Shown here one piece after another: positions 2,303 through 8,812 of a stretch of DNA of 64,000 nucleotides. The notes beneath the pieces were generated by a model. It made no database searches, was not told where the DNA came from, and saw nothing but the letters and a program-made list of their open reading frames with translations. The first letter of the stretch is position 1. Every line of letters begins with the position of its first letter. The stretch spans positions 2,080,001-2,144,000 of the forward strand of contig OZ243916.1 in the NCBI GenBank assembly GCA_965213675.1, read 5' to 3'. The stretch comes from an uncultured Candidatus Binatia bacterium (GTDB taxonomy: Bacteria; Desulfobacterota; Binatia; UBA9968; JAJDTQ01). The translations under genes were made by a program, and so were the position numbers.

Positions 2303-2578
2303 GTCCCGTCAACCTTGCCACGGAACCCCGGCCCGGCTCAACCAATGTCCAGGAATGCACCGCAAGGCATGGAACGCATCCGTGGCGATGACGTATCGCC
2401 AGGAAACCCACTGGCGTCATGTCATCGAATCCCTGACCGATGGTCCCTGGAATAGGGTGTCCGTCTGCACTATGGTACTTTGGTTTCGATTCCTGCTCCG
2501 CAAACCAAAAGACGTTCGGGCTGGTGGCGGACTGCCAGAAGCGGAACACGGGGAAGTGGCATCTGGAGGCATTTCGGG

Positions 2579-3505
2579 ATGGCCGACAAGCGTTGTTTCG
2601 TTCAATTTCCGCATCCTGGAGACGAGCACAAACCAGACCGCAATGGCAAGATCGGTTGGAACCAGAGGCGCTACGCTCACAAACGGAAGTTCATGCAGTT
2701 TCGTGGTGAGTGGATCGACGAGGACGGCGGCCGGCATCGTGGGGACCTGCGCGCGTGGGGCGAGTGGGAGCCCGAATCGGAGCTCATCCGCAGGCTCCAT
2801 CCCCCGAAGGGCAGTCCACGTCATCCCCGCTACCTTTGGAAACCGTATTGGGTTCCGAGGAGCAACTACGAGGGATTGCACGACACCGATCCATTCATCT
2901 TCGACAATGGCTTCCTTTATTCGAACTGCGGCCAGTCGGCCCCGAACAAGCGCGGGCTGAAGCGCCTTGCCGCAGGTTCCGTGATCGCCTTTGGAAGTTG
3001 CAAGAAGATCGACGGGACATGGAATTGGGTGCTCGATACCGTGTTGGTGGTCAGGAACAGTTGCCTGTACGAGCCGCGAGATCCACGGGAATCACTGGAG
3101 GGCAAGGTGTCTGACGCATTTCTGGATGTGACCGGCGGACCTTTGTCCGATAACGATGGGGAACCCTATTCTTCAGGGTATTGTGCCCCGACATCTGAAC
3201 CACTTCGGCTCTACCGGGGTGCGACACCCGACGATCCGGTGGACGGCATGTTCAGCTTCTTTCCCGCTATACCGGCTGATGGTGAATCGAGCTTCGCGCG
3301 GCCGGTCATCCAACTTTCGAGCGAACACCTCAATCCCGGAAATTTGCGGGCTCCCAAAGGGCACGGGCACAGTCGCCAGGCTCAAGAGTTGCGCGGCCTG
3401 TGGGACTCGCTCGTCAAACAGGTCCGCAAGAAACAACTCGTCCTGGGCACGCACGCTGCAATGCCGGAACCCAAGTCCGTTGGGCGCCAGTGTCGTGTCC
3501 CGTAA
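2579..3505 (+). CDS. Hypothetical protein with lower GC; weak resemblance to nucleotide-modification-associated domains
   Basis: ATG at 2579 with GGAGG upstream; motif TDPFIF..FLYSNCGQ...LAAGSVIAFGS. Stop codon lies inside the downstream repeat element. Confidence 0.7.
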   Translation: MADKRCFVQFPHPGDEHKPDRNGKIGWNQRRYAHKRKFMQFRGEWIDEDGGRHRGDLRAWGEWEPESELIRRLHPPKGSPRHPRYLWKPYWVPRSNYEGLHDTDPFIFDNGFLYSNCGQSAPNKRGLKRLAAGSVIAFGSCKKIDGTWNWVLDTVLVVRNSCLYEPRDPRESLEGKVSDAFLDVTGGPLSDNDGEPYSSGYCAPTSEPLRLYRGATPDDPVDGMFSFFPAIPADGESSFARPVIQLSSEHLNPGNLRAPKGHGHSRQAQELRGLWDSLVKQVRKKQLVLGTHAAMPEPKSVGRQCRVP

Positions 3506-3650
3506 ACAACTGCGACAAGTTGTGCAGGATTTTTGTTGTCGGCAAGGCGCGATGACGAGCAGTGGCGGTTACCACGCGAGGAAGAGCAACACAGCCGGCG
3601 GCGAATAAGGACAGCCAATTATCGCAGGAATTGGCGGGACACGACACCAG
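3487..3650 (+). mobile_element. Palindromic MITE-like element, family A, copy 1
   Basis: CCAG direct repeats flank 156 bp with TIR TGTCGTGTCCCG/CGGGACACGACA and core GGCAAGGCGCGATGACGAGCAGTGG..CCACGCGAGGAAGAGCAAC. Confidence 0.85.
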
Positions 3651-3714
3651 GCGCCTGCGCCGCAGGACGCATGGTGGCGAATCAAACGAAGGGAGTTGTT
3701 GCGCGGGAACCGCG

Positions 3715-3743
3715 TTGACAGCATTTGGCCGCTCTGGTAACGG
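3715..3743 (+). promoter_or_regulatory. Putative sigma70-type promoter of the VOC/IspH-like/UbiD cluster
   Basis: TTGACA, 17 nt, TAACGG, with a TG extended -10 motif. The -10 box is imperfect. Confidence 0.35.
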
Positions 3744-3821
3744 CGTGTCAGAGGTTGCGGCGGCGAAGACATGCTTCCGAAGTCATCCTGCAACCAACCC
3801 GCCGAAACGAGGAGGAAACCG

Positions 3822-4862
3822 ATGGAAGGACATGAACCGCGGGGCGTCGTGCATTGGATCGATCATTTTATCGTGGGCACCAACGACATGGTGAAATGGG
3901 TCGATTGGGCGGTGAACGCCACGGGCATCACCCGCAGGCCCATCGTCGGCATCACCACCACCGCGCGCAAGAAGGATGTCCCGATCATGTGCTTCCTGTG
4001 GTGGGATGGCGAGTCCTGCCGCATCGGCGCGTTCCTCCAACCCGAGGTCTACCCGCAGGCCAGGCCGCTGGGCGAGGAGTTGCCGCGGTGCGGCTTCTAC
4101 ATCCGGCCCGAGGATGTGGACCGGCACGTCAGGCGCCTCGACAGTCATGGAATTCCGCACACGGACCCGGTGCGGACCGCGGACGGCGGCGACGAGGGCA
4201 CGGTGATCTACTTCGCCGACCCCGACGGCAATCAGTTCGAGTTCTGGGCGCCGGAGCACATGCCCGAAGGCGCCATGGAAATGGCCACCACCGAGGGCGT
4301 GGGCCGCATCAGCCATGCCGTCTACGGTTCCCGGAACCTGGGCCGCACCGCCGACTTCTTCGGCAAGTATTGCGCCCTGGAGCCGGAAGTGAACCCCAAC
4401 GTGGCCGAGGGCAACCTGGTGCTGCGGCTGCACGCCGGCGGCCGGATCATCTACAAGCTCGTGGACCGGGTGGACGAACGCGTGGCCGGGCACGGTCCGT
4501 GGTGGGACATGCACACGGCGCTGACCGTGCGCGCCGATGAGTTCATGCCCAACTACCGGCGCATGTGGGAGACCCTGCCCGAGGAAGCCATGGCCAAGGA
4601 AGAAGACAGCCTGACCCTGGAGCAGGAGGACGCCCTGCCCGCCCGTACGGGCCTGCACCGGAGTCCGGTGGGCTACCGCTGGAAAGCCATGTTCGAGCGC
4701 GGCGACGAATTCTACGACTGGGACGGCCACGCATTCCATTTCTTCGGCGGCAAGCCCATTAAGGACGACGGTTCGCTGGCCCTGTACACCATCGTGGAGC
4801 AGCAAGAGTACCTCACCGAGGTGGCCGTGGAGGCCGGGAAGGCGCGGGCGGCCCACGGCTGA
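3822..4862 (+). CDS. Tandem VOC (glyoxalase/bleomycin resistance/extradiol dioxygenase) family protein
   Basis: GGAGG RBS; IDHFIV, IYFADPDGNQFEF, ISHAVY, MHTALTV and FYDWDGH motifs indicate two VOC domains. Confidence 0.82.
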   Translation: MEGHEPRGVVHWIDHFIVGTNDMVKWVDWAVNATGITRRPIVGITTTARKKDVPIMCFLWWDGESCRIGAFLQPEVYPQARPLGEELPRCGFYIRPEDVDRHVRRLDSHGIPHTDPVRTADGGDEGTVIYFADPDGNQFEFWAPEHMPEGAMEMATTEGVGRISHAVYGSRNLGRTADFFGKYCALEPEVNPNVAEGNLVLRLHAGGRIIYKLVDRVDERVAGHGPWWDMHTALTVRADEFMPNYRRMWETLPEEAMAKEEDSLTLEQEDALPARTGLHRSPVGYRWKAMFERGDEFYDWDGHAFHFFGGKPIKDDGSLALYTIVEQQEYLTEVAVEAGKARAAHG

Positions 4863-4987
4863 CGGCCATTTCACCCACGCTCAAGATCAGCCGCGGCCCA
4901 GTTTGGCCGTGGTCAAAGACGGCGCACAACCGGCCCGCACCCGTTTGCGACATCCGGCGACGCGTCCGGTTCAGCCAGGAGGCATTC

Positions 4988-5872
4988 ATGGAAGTGGTCA
5001 AGGTCGATTTCAGGGGCACCAAGGGTATTCCCCCCTCGGGGTTGTGCGTGGGCGTGCATCGTGCCGGGGCCGTGCACCAGAAGATGGTGGAGAAGTATGG
5101 CGACGGCATCGCCGTGTGGTCCCTGCGACCCGAGAACGACTTCATCGCGTTCAAATCGCTGGAAGACGAGGAGGGCATCCGCTCCACCAACGACATGGAC
5201 TCCATCAAGGATGAGAGACTCATCTATGGTGTGCGCGGCGCGCCTCCGGAAATTCGCAGGCAGGCCAGGGAGCAGGGGCTGGAGCTTCTGGCCGACGCCA
5301 CCTGCCCGTTCGTGGTGCAGCAGGAGGAGGCGGAGCTGGAGTTGCTGGAACAGGGTTGTCACCTCGTGATCCTGAGCAGCCGCACGCACCACGGCATCCC
5401 GCGCCTCATGGGCATCGCCAAGGAGAAGGAGCGGGAGGTGTTCATCGTCGAGACGGAAGCGGACGTGGCCGACATCCGCCTGACCCGCTTCGAGCCGGTG
5501 GGAGTCATCGTACAGACCACCTTCTGGATGGAGAGCTATACCGGGATCATGACCCGGATCCTCGAACGCTTCGCCAACGTGCGCATCCGCAACACCGCCT
5601 GCATCGACTCGCTGCAGCGCCTGCCCAAGGTGGAGGCGCTGGCGCGCGACGTGGAGGCGGTGGTCATCTTCGGCTGGACCGAGGGCATGACCAACCGCAT
5701 GGAGGAGGTGGCGCGGGCGTTCAACGACCATGTCCACCGCATCGAGAAGATCGACGACCTGGAGCGCTCGTGGTTCACGGGCAAGTCGCGGGTCGGCATC
5801 GTCGGCGCCAACGAGACCACCGACGAACTGGTGAACGAGGCCGTGGAACGCATCAAGTCCATGGCCGCCTGA
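4988..5872 (+). CDS. Divergent IspH/LytB-fold [4Fe-4S] protein
   Basis: AGGAGG RBS; GLCVGV.RA, DATCPFV, VQTT, NTAC and SWF.G..RVGI landmarks of IspH. Substrate-binding and catalytic motifs are altered. Confidence 0.85.
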   Translation: MEVVKVDFRGTKGIPPSGLCVGVHRAGAVHQKMVEKYGDGIAVWSLRPENDFIAFKSLEDEEGIRSTNDMDSIKDERLIYGVRGAPPEIRRQAREQGLELLADATCPFVVQQEEAELELLEQGCHLVILSSRTHHGIPRLMGIAKEKEREVFIVETEADVADIRLTRFEPVGVIVQTTFWMESYTGIMTRILERFANVRIRNTACIDSLQRLPKVEALARDVEAVVIFGWTEGMTNRMEEVARAFNDHVHRIEKIDDLERSWFTGKSRVGIVGANETTDELVNEAVERIKSMAA

Positions 5873-5916
5873 GGGCACAGCCGCCGGGAGAAACCCCACG
5901 CGGGAGGGAACCGCAC

Positions 5917-7383
5917 ATGTCGACGATCGAGACCATGGAAGCCAGACTCCCCTATCACGACCTCCGCGAGTGGATGGCCCGGGCCGACGCCTTGGGCGAG
6001 TTGCGCACTGTCACCGGCGCGAGCTGGGAAGAGGACATCGGGCTCGCCGCCGACGCGGTCATCCGCGTGGACGACGGCCCCGCGGTGCTGTTCGACGATA
6101 TTCCCGGATGCCCCAAGGGTTTCCGCGTGCTCATCAACGCGTTCGCCGGCAAGCGGCGGAACATGACCCTGGGGTTCCCGGAGCACCTCACCAAGCAGGA
6201 GCTGAGCCAGGCCTTCTTCGACCACTACATCAAGGTGCAGCGGCGCCTGCCCCACGTGGTGGTGGACGACGGACCGGTGTTCGAGAACATCCTTACCGGC
6301 GACGACATCGACGTCATGAAGTTCCCGACCCCCAAATGGCATCGGGACGATGGCGGCCGCTACATCGGCACGGGCTGCTTCTGCGTCACCATCGACCCGG
6401 AGGAGCGCTGGATCAACGTGGGCACCTACCGCGCCATGGTGCAGGATCCGAAGTCCGTGAGCCTGCTGTTCGTTCCGGGCAAACACGCCTACATGCACCG
6501 CAAGAAGTATTTCGACAAGGGACAACCCATGCCCGTGGCCCTGGTGGTGGGCAGCGACCCCATGTCGTTTTTCGTGGGCGGCACGGAGTTTCCCTACGGC
6601 GTGTGCGAGTTCGACGTGGTGGGGGGGTTGCGCGGCGCGCCCGTGGAGGTGGTGCGCGGCAAGGTGACGGGGCTGCCCATCCCGGCCAACGCGGAGATCG
6701 TGCTGGAGGGCTTCCTGACCCAGGACAAGCGCGCGGTGGAGGGCCCGTTCGGCGAGTGGACCGGCTACTATGCCGGCGGCGCCAGCGAACAGCCCACCCT
6801 CGACATCCGCGCCATCTACCACCGCAACGACCCCATCATCCTGGGCGTGCCGCCGCTGGGGGCCGGCTCCGACGAGATGGCGCGCTACCGCGCCATCATG
6901 CGCTCGGCCATGCTCAAGCACGAGTTGGTCAACGCCGGCGTTCCCGACGTCACCCAAGTGTGGTGCCACGAGGTCGGCGCCTCGCGCCTGCTGCACGGCA
7001 TCGGCATCAAACAGCGCTACCCCGGCCACGCGAGGCAGGCGGGCGTTCTGGCATCGTCGTGCGGCTCGGTGGTGTACGGCTGCAAGTTCGTCATCGTGGT
7101 GGACGACGACGTGGACGTGTCCAACCTGGATGAACTCATCTGGGCCATGCTCACTCGCACCGATCCCGAGACCTCCATCGAAATACTGCGAAAGATGCGC
7201 ACCTCCCCCGCCGACCCCCGGGTGACCCCGGACCAGCGCAAGGTCCAGGACCTCACCAATTCCCGCGTGGTGGTGGACGCCTGCCGTCCCTACGAGTGGT
7301 TCGACAAATACCCCAAGGTGAATGCGCCCGCCCCCGACGTGGTGCGCAAGGCGCGTGAGAAGTTCGGCTACCTGCTGGACTGA
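5917..7383 (+). CDS. UbiD-family prFMN-dependent (de)carboxylase
   Basis: DLREW, DGGRYIGT, NVGTYR, AEIVLEG, EGPFGEWTGYY and IVVDDDVD motifs; GGAGG RBS. Confidence 0.93.
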   Translation: MSTIETMEARLPYHDLREWMARADALGELRTVTGASWEEDIGLAADAVIRVDDGPAVLFDDIPGCPKGFRVLINAFAGKRRNMTLGFPEHLTKQELSQAFFDHYIKVQRRLPHVVVDDGPVFENILTGDDIDVMKFPTPKWHRDDGGRYIGTGCFCVTIDPEERWINVGTYRAMVQDPKSVSLLFVPGKHAYMHRKKYFDKGQPMPVALVVGSDPMSFFVGGTEFPYGVCEFDVVGGLRGAPVEVVRGKVTGLPIPANAEIVLEGFLTQDKRAVEGPFGEWTGYYAGGASEQPTLDIRAIYHRNDPIILGVPPLGAGSDEMARYRAIMRSAMLKHELVNAGVPDVTQVWCHEVGASRLLHGIGIKQRYPGHARQAGVLASSCGSVVYGCKFVIVVDDDVDVSNLDELIWAMLTRTDPETSIEILRKMRTSPADPRVTPDQRKVQDLTNSRVVVDACRPYEWFDKYPKVNAPAPDVVRKAREKFGYLLD

Positions 7384-7444
7384 ACGCCCGGCGCTGCCAA
7401 CGGCCCGTTCAGGGAACCCGTAGAAGCGCCATGGGAATCGATTC

Positions 7445-7993
7445 ATGACAACGGGCGCCGGACGTTTCGCACAAGCAGCCCTCATCGGGGACTCGGACGC
7501 CTCCGACCCGAACCTGGAGTTGGCCGAGCAGGCCGGCGAGTTGCTCGCGCGCCGCGGCGTGACGCTGGTCACTGGCGGCCGCGGCGGCGTCATGGAAGCG
7601 GCGTGTCGGGGCGCCGCCCGCGCTGGCGGCCTCACCGTCGGCATCATGCCTGGTTCGGACGCGCGTTCGGCCAACCCGTGGTGCGCTGTCGTCATCCCCA
7701 CCGGTCTGGGCCACGCGCGCAACGTGCTGACGGCGCTGGCCGGCGACTTCGTCGTGGCCGTGGGCGGCGGCGCCGGCACCCTTTCCGAACTGTGCTTCGG
7801 CTGGATCCACGGCCGGCCCCTCTACGTGCTTGGGGGATCCGGAGGATGGTCCGACCGGCTCGCAGGCGGCGACCTGGACCACCGCATGTCCTCGGTGATC
7901 GTCCGTTGCGACGGCATTCAGGCACTGGAACGCGAAGTCGTGCGCTTCTGTGCCACGAAGGGACTCCGTACCCGGGAGCCAGCGCCGGAATGA
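7445..7993 (+). CDS. LOG/TIGR00725-family (SLOG superfamily) protein
   Basis: GGRGGVMEAACRGA, IPTGLGHARN and GGGAGTLSE motifs. Confidence 0.88.
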   Translation: MTTGAGRFAQAALIGDSDASDPNLELAEQAGELLARRGVTLVTGGRGGVMEAACRGAARAGGLTVGIMPGSDARSANPWCAVVIPTGLGHARNVLTALAGDFVVAVGGGAGTLSELCFGWIHGRPLYVLGGSGGWSDRLAGGDLDHRMSSVIVRCDGIQALEREVVRFCATKGLRTREPAPE

Positions 7994-8048
7994 CCTGGGC
8001 GCTTGCGTCCCAAGCATCTCCTCGCTTTCAGATTCCGCAACATTGGGT

Positions 8049-8812
8049 TCACTGGGTGAGCTTGCGCTGCATCAGTCTGGCGGCGCAGGCCACCAGGACG
8101 GTGGAGAGGCCGAGGATGTAGGCGACGTCCCAGATGAGCGTGGCGGACGGCTGGCCCTGGAACGCGGCGCGGGCGAGGCGCACGGGGTGGAGCAGCGGCA
8201 GGCACTCGGCGACCCACAGCCAGGACGCGGACAGGCGTTCCTCCAGGGGAAAGAAGACCGACGAGAAGAGGAACAGCGGCGTCAGGAACAGGGTGAAGTA
8301 GAAGCTGTAGAGCTCGATGGTGCCAATGCGCAGGGTGAAGGCCAAGCCGATGGCGGAGAAGAGGAGGCCCGTGAGCGGTATCACCGGCAGCACCCAGAGG
8401 GCATGGGGCAGCGGCGCGAGCCCGGCCAGGGCCACGACGAGGGCGAAGCACAGCCCGTACATGCACGAACGCGTCATGGCCCAGAGCAACTCGCCGGCAA
8501 CCACGTCCACGGGCTGGATGGGGGTCGTGAGCATGGCGTCGTAGGCCTTCTCCATTTTCATGCGCACGTACACGTTGTAGGTCACCTCGAAACTGGCGCC
8601 GTTCATGGCGGCCACGCACACGAGCCCCGGAGCGAGGAACTGGATGTAGGAGGTGCCGCCCATGGTGGTGATGTAGGCGCCCAGGCCCACGCCAAGGGAA
8701 ACGAGGTAGAGCACCGGCTCGAAGAAGTTGGGCAGGAGGTTCCATTTCCAGGTGCGGCGGTACATGGCGGCGTTGCGCCGCCACACCGACAGAGCGTGCC
8801 GCCAGGACAGGT

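Follow-up and report, generated by a model that had tools for sequence, protein, structure and literature searches.

A conserved IspH-like iron-sulfur protein with an apparently rebuilt pocket and a partner 2Fe-2S ferredoxin

The 64-kb stretch of Candidatus Binatia DNA analysed here (C1:2,080,001-2,144,000 of the 4.53-Mb genome G000), which we call the window, carries a gene for an IspH-like protein in a row with genes for a VOC protein, a UbiD-family decarboxylase and a SLOG protein. IspH catalyses the last step in the MEP (methylerythritol phosphate) pathway and is a drug target. To our knowledge, all members of the LytB/IspH family have been treated as one enzyme. The four open reading frames (ORFs) lie as follows:

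3822-4862, + strand: VOC-superfamily (glyoxalase/bleomycin/dioxygenase) gene, 346 aa (alternative ATG at 3771)
4988-5872, + strand: gene for the IspH-like [4Fe-4S] protein (predicted cluster), 294 aa
5917-7383, + strand: UbiD-family decarboxylase gene (its ATG is at 5917, not 5911)
7445-7993, + strand: SLOG cluster 4/TIGR00725 gene

The intergenic gaps are 125 bp (VOC/IspH-like), 44 bp (IspH-like/UbiD) and 61 bp (UbiD/SLOG), and an AGGAGG ribosome-binding site is located 7 nt 5' of the ATG of the IspH-like gene. The UbiD sequences used as queries began at 5911 and had two extra N-terminal residues. A promoter and terminator scan of 3400-8300 gave nothing beyond shuffled expectation.

Fold, pocket and paralogy of the IspH-like protein

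The IspH-like protein belongs to Pfam LYTB (PF02401), which matches residues 16-290 with 138.3 bits against a cut-off of 24.5, but it falls under the cut-off of all seven NCBIfam IspH models (best 128.6 vs 276; TIGR00216, 116.2 bits vs 187.85). Its AlphaFold2 model, built on an 80-row alignment, has a predicted local distance difference test score (pLDDT) of 93, and the top Foldseek matches of the model are IspH structures, with template-modelling (TM) scores of 0.82-0.86 to E. coli IspH chains. Dph2 and quinolinate synthase rank next, with probabilities of 0.6-0.9 and weak TM scores of about 0.2-0.3. NadA (dehydration) and Dph2 (radical chemistry) show by precedent that a related fold can carry a three-Cys cluster with one free iron for very different reactions, though here the fold match is weak and no sequence relation was detected.

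With regard to the pocket, residue correspondences were taken from a HMMER alignment to E. coli and Aquifex IspH and from a MAFFT alignment with canonical sequences. The motifs GLCVGV, DATCPF, NTACID and QTT are present, and the cluster cysteines are kept as C20, C106 and C205 (E. coli C12, C96 and C197), together with H124 (here H134), Q166, T167 and T168 in E. coli numbering. On the other hand, H41 is replaced by E49 (Asp or Glu across the family), H74 by R83, S225/S226/N227 by E232/G233/M234 and S269 by E276. P125/E126 align with H135/G136 by HMMER, whereas MAFFT sets R139 at E126 after a three-residue insert; by either aligner there is no acidic counterpart of the catalytic E126. According to the accessible part of PMC8837944, the diphosphate pocket of IspH is formed by H41, H74, H124, S225, S269, T168, N227 and Q166, and activity is almost absent or very low in the mutants E126Q/D/A and H124A/F. 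Three of these eight pocket side chains are kept in our protein (H124, Q166 and T168) and five are changed, three of them to acidic residues. As aligned, the pocket appears rich in Arg and Glu and rebuilt relative to canonical IspH, from which the whole protein also differs at an identity of 22-24%.

A first-pass annotation of this DNA had described the three cluster cysteines and QTT as kept and most of the HMBPP-binding and catalytic motifs (H41, H74, S225/S226/N227 and the catalytic Glu) as replaced (HMBPP, hydroxymethylbutenyl diphosphate), and both descriptions hold across the family. Its statement that VHN is absent was right for the His (H41 to E49) and wrong for the Asn, which is kept in the genus (N50), while its change of GAS to GAN was one residue out of register, S269 aligning with E276.

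The 127 full-length coding sequences from 132 loci, together with two distant proteins, gave 116 unique proteins, in which 43 of the 294 positions are invariant. These include C20, C106, C205, R47, R83, H134, H135, G136 and R139, and also Q176, T177, T178, D207, S208, G233, N275 and T277. E232 and M234 are each found in 115 of the 116 sequences and E276 in 114, and there is no fourth invariant Cys. Because the pocket replacements are conserved in the family, they are a conserved feature and not decay, and the pocket is the same whatever the neighbouring genes, with UbiD adjacent or not. The gene is under strong purifying selection, the absence of which the first-pass annotation would have counted against its reading: the median pairwise ratio of nonsynonymous to synonymous substitution rates (dN/dS, NG86) is 0.13 for 60 pairs inside the genus of the window, 0.05 for pairs outside it (56 of 80 usable, with dS near saturation) and 0.11 between the two (50 of 80 usable). 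At one locus (L050 468-1732, equal to G229:C427), the gene is present in two overlapping pieces (residues 1-220 and 85-294), which could be due to duplication, frameshift or an assembly fault.

The same genome has a canonical IspH at C1:3,156,379-3,157,209 (Pfam LYTB, 326 bits, all canonical motifs) and also IspG, and the IspH-like gene is therefore a paralogue. In a tree of 80 sequences (quick search, LG+G4, midpoint root for drawing only), 18 non-canonical rows were split from 62 canonical ones with an SH-aLRT support of 99, and the genome's own canonical IspH grouped among the 62. The view of the first-pass annotation that this is not the housekeeping IspH, for which it had named a LytB profile search and a phylogeny as checks, is thus supported by the profile scores, by the separate clade and by the canonical IspH and IspG elsewhere in the genome.

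Relatives are few. Among 1.84 billion representatives of 50%-identity clusters, four full-length proteins stood above the level of canonical IspH, with 74%, 42%, 39% and 35% identity, and ordinary IspH appeared from 33% identity downward. The 35% relative (P0141) is without the first cluster cysteine. The 42% relative (P0124, from JGI, 310 aa) has a very acidic composition and may come from a halophile. A metagenome scan aimed at the distant homologues P0124, P0130 and P0144 (30-42% identical) returned only the group at 70-76% identity and one genus locus. No longer fused forms (516-2000 aa) were found at E<=1e-40, a search that is weak evidence, and matches in a protein-cluster atlas were to 'LytB protein domain-containing protein' clusters only. 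Taking E<=1e-60 as the criterion for presence, 57 of the 121 genomes that represent the order of the window have the protein (the tallies over the 121 include the unpublished genomes G274 and G279), namely the window's genome and 27/27 others of the genus, four of the five sampled from a second family and 25 of the 88 from a third; none of 200 other genomes sampled across the rest of the phylum has it. The family is taxonomically narrow.

Source databases label these homologues as HMBPP reductase. Judged from its residues, the protein fails the defining catalytic and substrate-binding features of IspH, and it should not carry the HMBPP reductase label; we consider it very probable that it is not that enzyme. 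In the literature, with most subscription journals uncovered, we found no description of such a clade, of its ferredoxin or of an IspH-like/UbiD cluster, and in the accessible part of the IspH sequence-network paper (PMC4746011) no mention of such a clade was found.

Partner ferredoxin and gene neighbourhoods

The loci form two groups: 24 at 86-95% identity, all assigned to the genus of the window by identity bands, and 108 at 52-78% identity outside the genus, totalling 926 kb. Of the 108 loci outside the genus, 96 have a gene for a 2Fe-2S ferredoxin of about 94 aa directly 3' of the IspH-like gene, typically after a gap of 6-12 bp. Where it is missing, the locus in several cases stops at a contig edge; L046, L076 and L077 are without it despite room downstream. 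The ferredoxin belongs to Pfam Fer2 (PF00111; 40-43 bits, cut-off 21) and has the C-x4-C-x2-X...C spacing of plant-type and ISC-type ferredoxins, but the four-Cys plant-type ligand set is incomplete, because the third position is an invariant Asp: the pattern C36-x4-C41-x2-D44...C79 was the same in 24 diverse sequences.

The window's genome has one ferredoxin orthologue, at C1:2,482,005-2,482,286, which is 397 kb from the IspH-like gene and 61% identical to a soil copy. Throughout the genus the ferredoxin is unlinked, lying hundreds of kb away, and is nevertheless kept in 25 of 27 genomes and in the window's own, at 84-97% identity. Over the order, it is present in 52 of the 121 genomes, each of which is one of the 57 that carry the IspH-like gene, and in none of the 64 without that gene. 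Unlike other PF00111 ferredoxins, the partner family is thus confined to genomes bearing the IspH-like gene among the 121 searched. Because these counts include kin, they lack independence, and in loci outside the genus adjacency alone entails the co-occurrence; its informative part is the retention of the unlinked ferredoxin in the genus. The constant partner of the IspH-like gene is the ferredoxin, which the first-pass annotation had missed, and not UbiD. A predicted complex of the IspH-like protein and the genome's ferredoxin with clusters scored 0.00, which is evidence neither way.

Around the unlinked ferredoxin of the window's genome (L067, G000:C1:2474000-2490000) there are a gene of the phosphoenolpyruvate (PEP) mutase/isocitrate lyase family, a short-chain dehydrogenase/reductase (SDR) gene and defence-type genes, namely Schlafen AlbA_2 with HATPase_c_4 and GmrSD; this neighbourhood gave no functional lead. 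In another genome of the genus (G264:C1:472002-474776), two copies of the ferredoxin lie about 2.2 kb apart.

In the genus, the IspH-like, UbiD and SLOG genes stand in a row in 24/24 loci, with 12-148 bp between IspH-like and UbiD and 22-259 bp between UbiD and SLOG (by tblastn ends), while the flanks of the block vary. In 14 of the 24 loci a VOC gene lies upstream at a distance of 29 to 6522 bp; the available upstream sequence has none in nine, and one locus ends at a contig edge. An ABC-2 gene follows 1.1-3.6 kb downstream where seen. The block is probably co-transcribed in the genus: in an RNA library of a sponge metagenome, a contig of 1008 nt with about 92% identity spans 5027-6041, across the IspH-like/UbiD junction. 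A separate RNA-library contig covers the VOC gene, and its downstream end departs from the window; no RNA-library contig covers the SLOG gene, where no cover is no evidence. It counts against co-transcription that the RNA library may contain DNA and that a contig over two genes is no proof of one transcript.

Outside the genus, UbiD was seen near the IspH-like gene five times where 6.3 were expected (108 loci, 926 kb). Four of the five (L041, L086, L125 and L126) represent one shared arrangement with UbiD about 7 kb upstream, and the fifth, L051 in a metagenome-assembled genome (MAG) labelled Rhodospirillaceae, has a different UbiD (30% identical) next to the IspH-like gene. This chance-level occurrence is explained by the number of UbiD paralogues. 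We counted 31 Pfam UbiD matches in the window's 4.5-Mb genome and 27-63 in each of five related or IspH-like-bearing genomes (G001-G005), with 63 in one 4.5-Mb genome; the density over the six genomes was 6.8 per Mb. Moreover, three genomes outside the genus have a 71-74% identical orthologue of the window's UbiD elsewhere, with no IspH-like or SLOG gene within 1.5 kb, and the five genomes outside the genus that were searched yielded no close SLOG orthologue (the best match is 48% identical). The UbiD/SLOG linkage being confined to the genus and UbiD being at chance level elsewhere, the arrangement is one genus-level evolutionary event. The UbiD/VOC/LOG linkage, which the first-pass annotation had treated as possibly recurrent, therefore reduces to the synteny of a single genus. 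In the accessible part of the Binatota genome survey (PMC8262859), the main text does not contain the word 'UbiD'.

With regard to the individual neighbours, the UbiD protein has all three domains of its family, central, C-terminal and N-terminal (Pfam UbiD, UbiD_C and UbiD_N; PF01977 with 214.3 bits, PF20696 with 95.7 bits and PF20695 with 32.8 bits), and the EGPFGE stretch noted as intact in the first-pass annotation is indeed present in its ORF. It scores 269.6 bits on the general family model TIGR00148 (cut-off 244.85) and falls under all the specific equivalog cut-offs. Its closest solved structure is PDB 7PDA (369.7 bits), which the accessible part of PMC10850782 gives as the phenazine-1-carboxylate decarboxylase PhdA of Mycolicibacterium fortuitum. 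This likeness is no more than a hint at a (hetero)aromatic acid substrate; the protein is one of 31 paralogues. The one UbiX found in the genome lies about 770 kb from the IspH-like gene.

The last gene of the block had been called LOG-family, an assignment that did not survive: its product matches PF18306 (137.5 bits, cut-off 26.3) and TIGR00725 (129.7 bits, cut-off 106.9) and stays below the LOG cut-offs (TIGR00730, 46.6 vs 96.35; PF03641, 23.2 vs 27). The nearest solved chains are 1rcu, 6y01 and 2iz5, the last being the molybdenum cofactor (Moco) carrier protein of Chlamydomonas (E 4e-19). It thus resembles the Moco carrier protein and not the cytokinin-activating LOG. The reading of the VOC gene as two-domain was borne out for the N-terminal domain (PF00903, 28.2 bits, residues 13-141 only, with weak FosB/FosX-like matches), whereas the C-terminal half has no Pfam match and only a weak resemblance to the N-terminal half (E 0.25). 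An AlphaFold2 model of the VOC protein from 14 close orthologues had a pLDDT of 38 and was left unused.

In character, the surroundings outside the genus are reductive and either catabolic or detoxifying. An OCD/mu-crystallin gene is found in 26 of the 108 loci, a reductive-dehalogenase (RDH)/QueG-like protein in 21 (TIGR02486, 119 bits, below the cut-off of 160), small CMD/AhpD-like proteins in 20-23, glutathione S-transferases (GSTs) of two families immediately upstream in 31 (21 + 10), and a GntR/UTRA regulator and a nitroreductase in 15 each. Further neighbours are cupins, luciferase-like monooxygenase (LLM) family oxidoreductases, a different two-domain VOC and NMT1-type binding proteins. 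One metagenome contig (L125 1-13357; L126, L086 and L041 are similar) holds an 11-kb island on one strand, except for the NMT1 gene, in the order ABC ATPase, UbiD (45% identical to that of the window), LLM oxidoreductase, two-domain VOC, NMT1 binding protein, cupin, CMD-like proteins, IspH-like, ferredoxin, OCD, RDH/QueG-like and GST.

Candidate function

We regard it as an evenly balanced proposition that, taken as a whole, the IspH-like protein and the ferredoxin form a two-component iron-sulfur reductase for a non-phosphorylated substrate. The IspH-like protein would be a neofunctionalised IspH paralogue retaining the three-domain fold and the three-Cys [4Fe-4S] cluster, in which one iron would remain open to a ligand. 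As aligned, the polar pocket for the diphosphate of HMBPP is rebuilt with R47, R83, R139, Asp or Glu at 49, E232 and E276, and the proton donor Glu126 is gone. A pocket rebuilt in this way, together with the loss of Glu126, points to a substrate without a diphosphate, probably small and charged and bearing carboxylate and/or amine groups. The dedicated ferredoxin (Cys36, Cys41, Asp44, Cys79) would supply electrons, and the substrate would bind the unique iron through a hydroxyl or another oxygen function, probably on the same principle as in IspH, and then undergo a two-electron reductive dehydroxylation or deoxygenation of the IspH type. The linkage and co-occurrence of the ferredoxin and the reductive gene surroundings outside the genus speak for this reading. 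Proton delivery may have been taken over by H134/H135 or another residue. In the genus of the window, the ferredoxin gene would have moved about 400 kb away, and the enzyme gene now stands before a PhdA-like UbiD and the SLOG gene. A functional tie or shared pathway with this adjacent UbiD is possible, though we lean somewhat against it.

Several points weigh against the two-component reductase. A ferredoxin beside an iron-sulfur enzyme can serve cluster repair or activation instead of turnover, and the fold also supports non-redox chemistry, since IspH hydrates alkynes (accessible part of PMC8837944). That the reaction is a reduction, as well as the nature of the substrate, is inferred; the pocket assignment comes from sequence alignment, and the aligners differ on the replacement of E126 (G136 or R139). 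Moreover, five of the 57 genomes with the enzyme are without the ferredoxin at E<=1e-15 (completeness 93%, 76%, 91%, 94% and 66%), and the neighbourhoods outside the genus vary so widely that no single pathway emerges.

Among the other explanations, the one with the best claim is a non-redox iron-sulfur (de)hydratase or lyase, in which the free iron acts as a Lewis acid on a hydroxyl and the ferredoxin keeps the cluster reduced or repaired, although we hold it to be unlikely. The OCD/mu-crystallin gene, of imine-reductase type, follows the pair in 26 of 108 loci and would fit a dehydratase making an imine or keto acid; OCD/mu-crystallin-type genes pair with AcnX-type hydroxyproline dehydratases. 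The invariant Arg and Glu of the pocket suit a zwitterionic substrate, the rank of Dph2 and quinolinate synthase next to IspH in Foldseek suggests that the fold is used for other chemistry, and IspH itself turns alkynes into aldehydes or ketones (accessible part of PMC8837944). On the other hand, the tight ferredoxin linkage (96/108) and co-occurrence (52/57 vs 0/64) are beyond those of a usual repair factor, and that the general acid Glu126 is lost is not in itself an argument for hydration. A sensor, regulator or plain electron carrier without catalysis is much less probable still. The catalytic Glu is gone, the varied surroundings outside the genus are as for a general redox module, and the accessible part of PMC4746011 proposes a signalling role for IspH fusions; however, the invariance of R47, R83, H134, H135, G136, R139, T177, G233 and N275 at pocket-lining positions speaks for a particular small molecule as ligand, the protein has neither a DNA-binding nor a signalling domain and, on the weak evidence of the fusion search above, no longer fusion, and a cluster held by three Cys with one iron free is uncommon in a pure carrier. 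Least probable of all, to the point that we scarcely entertain it, is that the protein is still an HMBPP reductase, as a second IspH that is redundant or condition-specific. This would agree with the LytB fold, the three cluster cysteines, T167, H124, Q166, T168 and the database annotation, but E126, whose mutants in E. coli IspH are almost inactive (accessible part of PMC8837944), is absent, five of eight diphosphate-pocket side chains are changed with three becoming acidic, the scores are below every NCBIfam IspH cut-off, and the genome has a canonical IspH outside this separate clade.

A role in the UbiD cofactor, either supplying UbiX with dimethylallyl monophosphate made from hydroxymethylbutenyl phosphate or helping, with the SLOG protein, to load or mature prenylated flavin mononucleotide (prFMN) for the genome's many UbiD enzymes, also seems improbable, to much the same degree as a sensor. 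The block is tight in 24/24 genus loci while its flanks vary, the MAG L051 has its different UbiD directly upstream of a 52% identical homologue with ferredoxin, the genome has 31 UbiD matches to one UbiX, and the SLOG protein is related to a cofactor carrier (2iz5). Moreover, UbiD accessory proteins were recently found, namely the prFMNH2 chaperone LpdD and the prFMN maturase PhdC (accessible parts of PMC10865409 and PMC13040415), and the LpdD paper, in the same part, expects further, unidentified UbiD chaperones. These are small accessory genes beside a particular UbiD, in a position like that of IspH-like and SLOG genes in the genus, but LpdD is Pba3/4-like and PhdC is an HpaC-like flavin reductase, with no relation in sequence or fold to our proteins. 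On the other hand, the phosphate-binding side chains are Glu or Asp at three positions and the UbiX gene is distant, both of which disfavour the precursor supply suggested in the first-pass annotation; UbiD outside the genus does not exceed the expectation in genomes with 27-63 copies; the pocket is identical with or without a UbiD next door; and the genus synteny counts as one event. Even the adjacency in L051, given 34 UbiD genes over 2.9 Mb, has a chance of roughly 2% at any one locus, in a survey that took in 108 loci. In a specific form, to which we give a similarly low probability, the IspH-like protein, the unlinked ferredoxin and SLOG would be an activation module for the adjacent PhdA-like UbiD, providing oxygen-independent prFMN supply or maturation with SLOG as prFMN carrier. 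If true, such a module would tie the IspH fold to prFMN biology and address UbiD activation where the autocatalytic, oxygen-driven maturation fails.

Should the IspH-like protein prove to carry out a new reaction, the IspH fold would have its first function outside isoprenoid synthesis; this would show how the organometallic chemistry of IspH can be retargeted, and would put right an annotation error that runs systematically through metagenomes from soil, sponges and other sources. The enzyme and the ferredoxin provide a concrete pair for reconstitution. Specialists would find it surprising that an IspH can be conserved, retargeted and served by its own redox partner. The UbiD/prFMN story is unsupported; UbiD neighbours are a poor guide to function in genomes with dozens of UbiD paralogues.

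Some other substrates were considered and dropped for lack of any test. The zeatin side chain (a hydroxymethylbutenyl group) had been prompted by the 'LOG' label, which proved wrong, and hydroxymethylpyrimidine, organosulfur compounds and glutathione conjugates by the NMT1, LLM and GST neighbours in some loci.

Other features of the window

Upstream of the block, on the opposite strand, the window begins with genes of a molybdoenzyme:

1-249, - strand: xanthine-dehydrogenase-family large subunit, start of gene (molybdoenzyme)
558-1064, - strand: xanthine-dehydrogenase-family 2Fe-2S subunit
1061-2302, - strand: PaaK-like ligase, adjoining the xanthine-dehydrogenase-family genes

This arrangement of PaaK-like and xanthine-dehydrogenase-family genes is kept upstream of the IspH-like block in several genomes of the genus, and a tie between the molybdoenzyme and the nearby Moco-carrier-like SLOG gene is conceivable. 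Downstream of the SLOG gene there are an ABC-2 exporter, an Amidohydro_2 gene, a major facilitator superfamily (MFS) transporter and a nicotinate phosphoribosyltransferase gene. The Amidohydro_2 protein has 77 tblastn matches in the window's genome.

Between the PaaK-like ligase and the VOC gene, a 341-aa ORF at 2480-3505 (+ strand) has no match to Pfam or NCBIfam. It sits in a stretch of lower G+C (0.59-0.62 vs 0.64-0.71 in flanking windows), and a partial second copy of it (53% identity over 175 aa) is located at C1:2,773,478-2,773,999.

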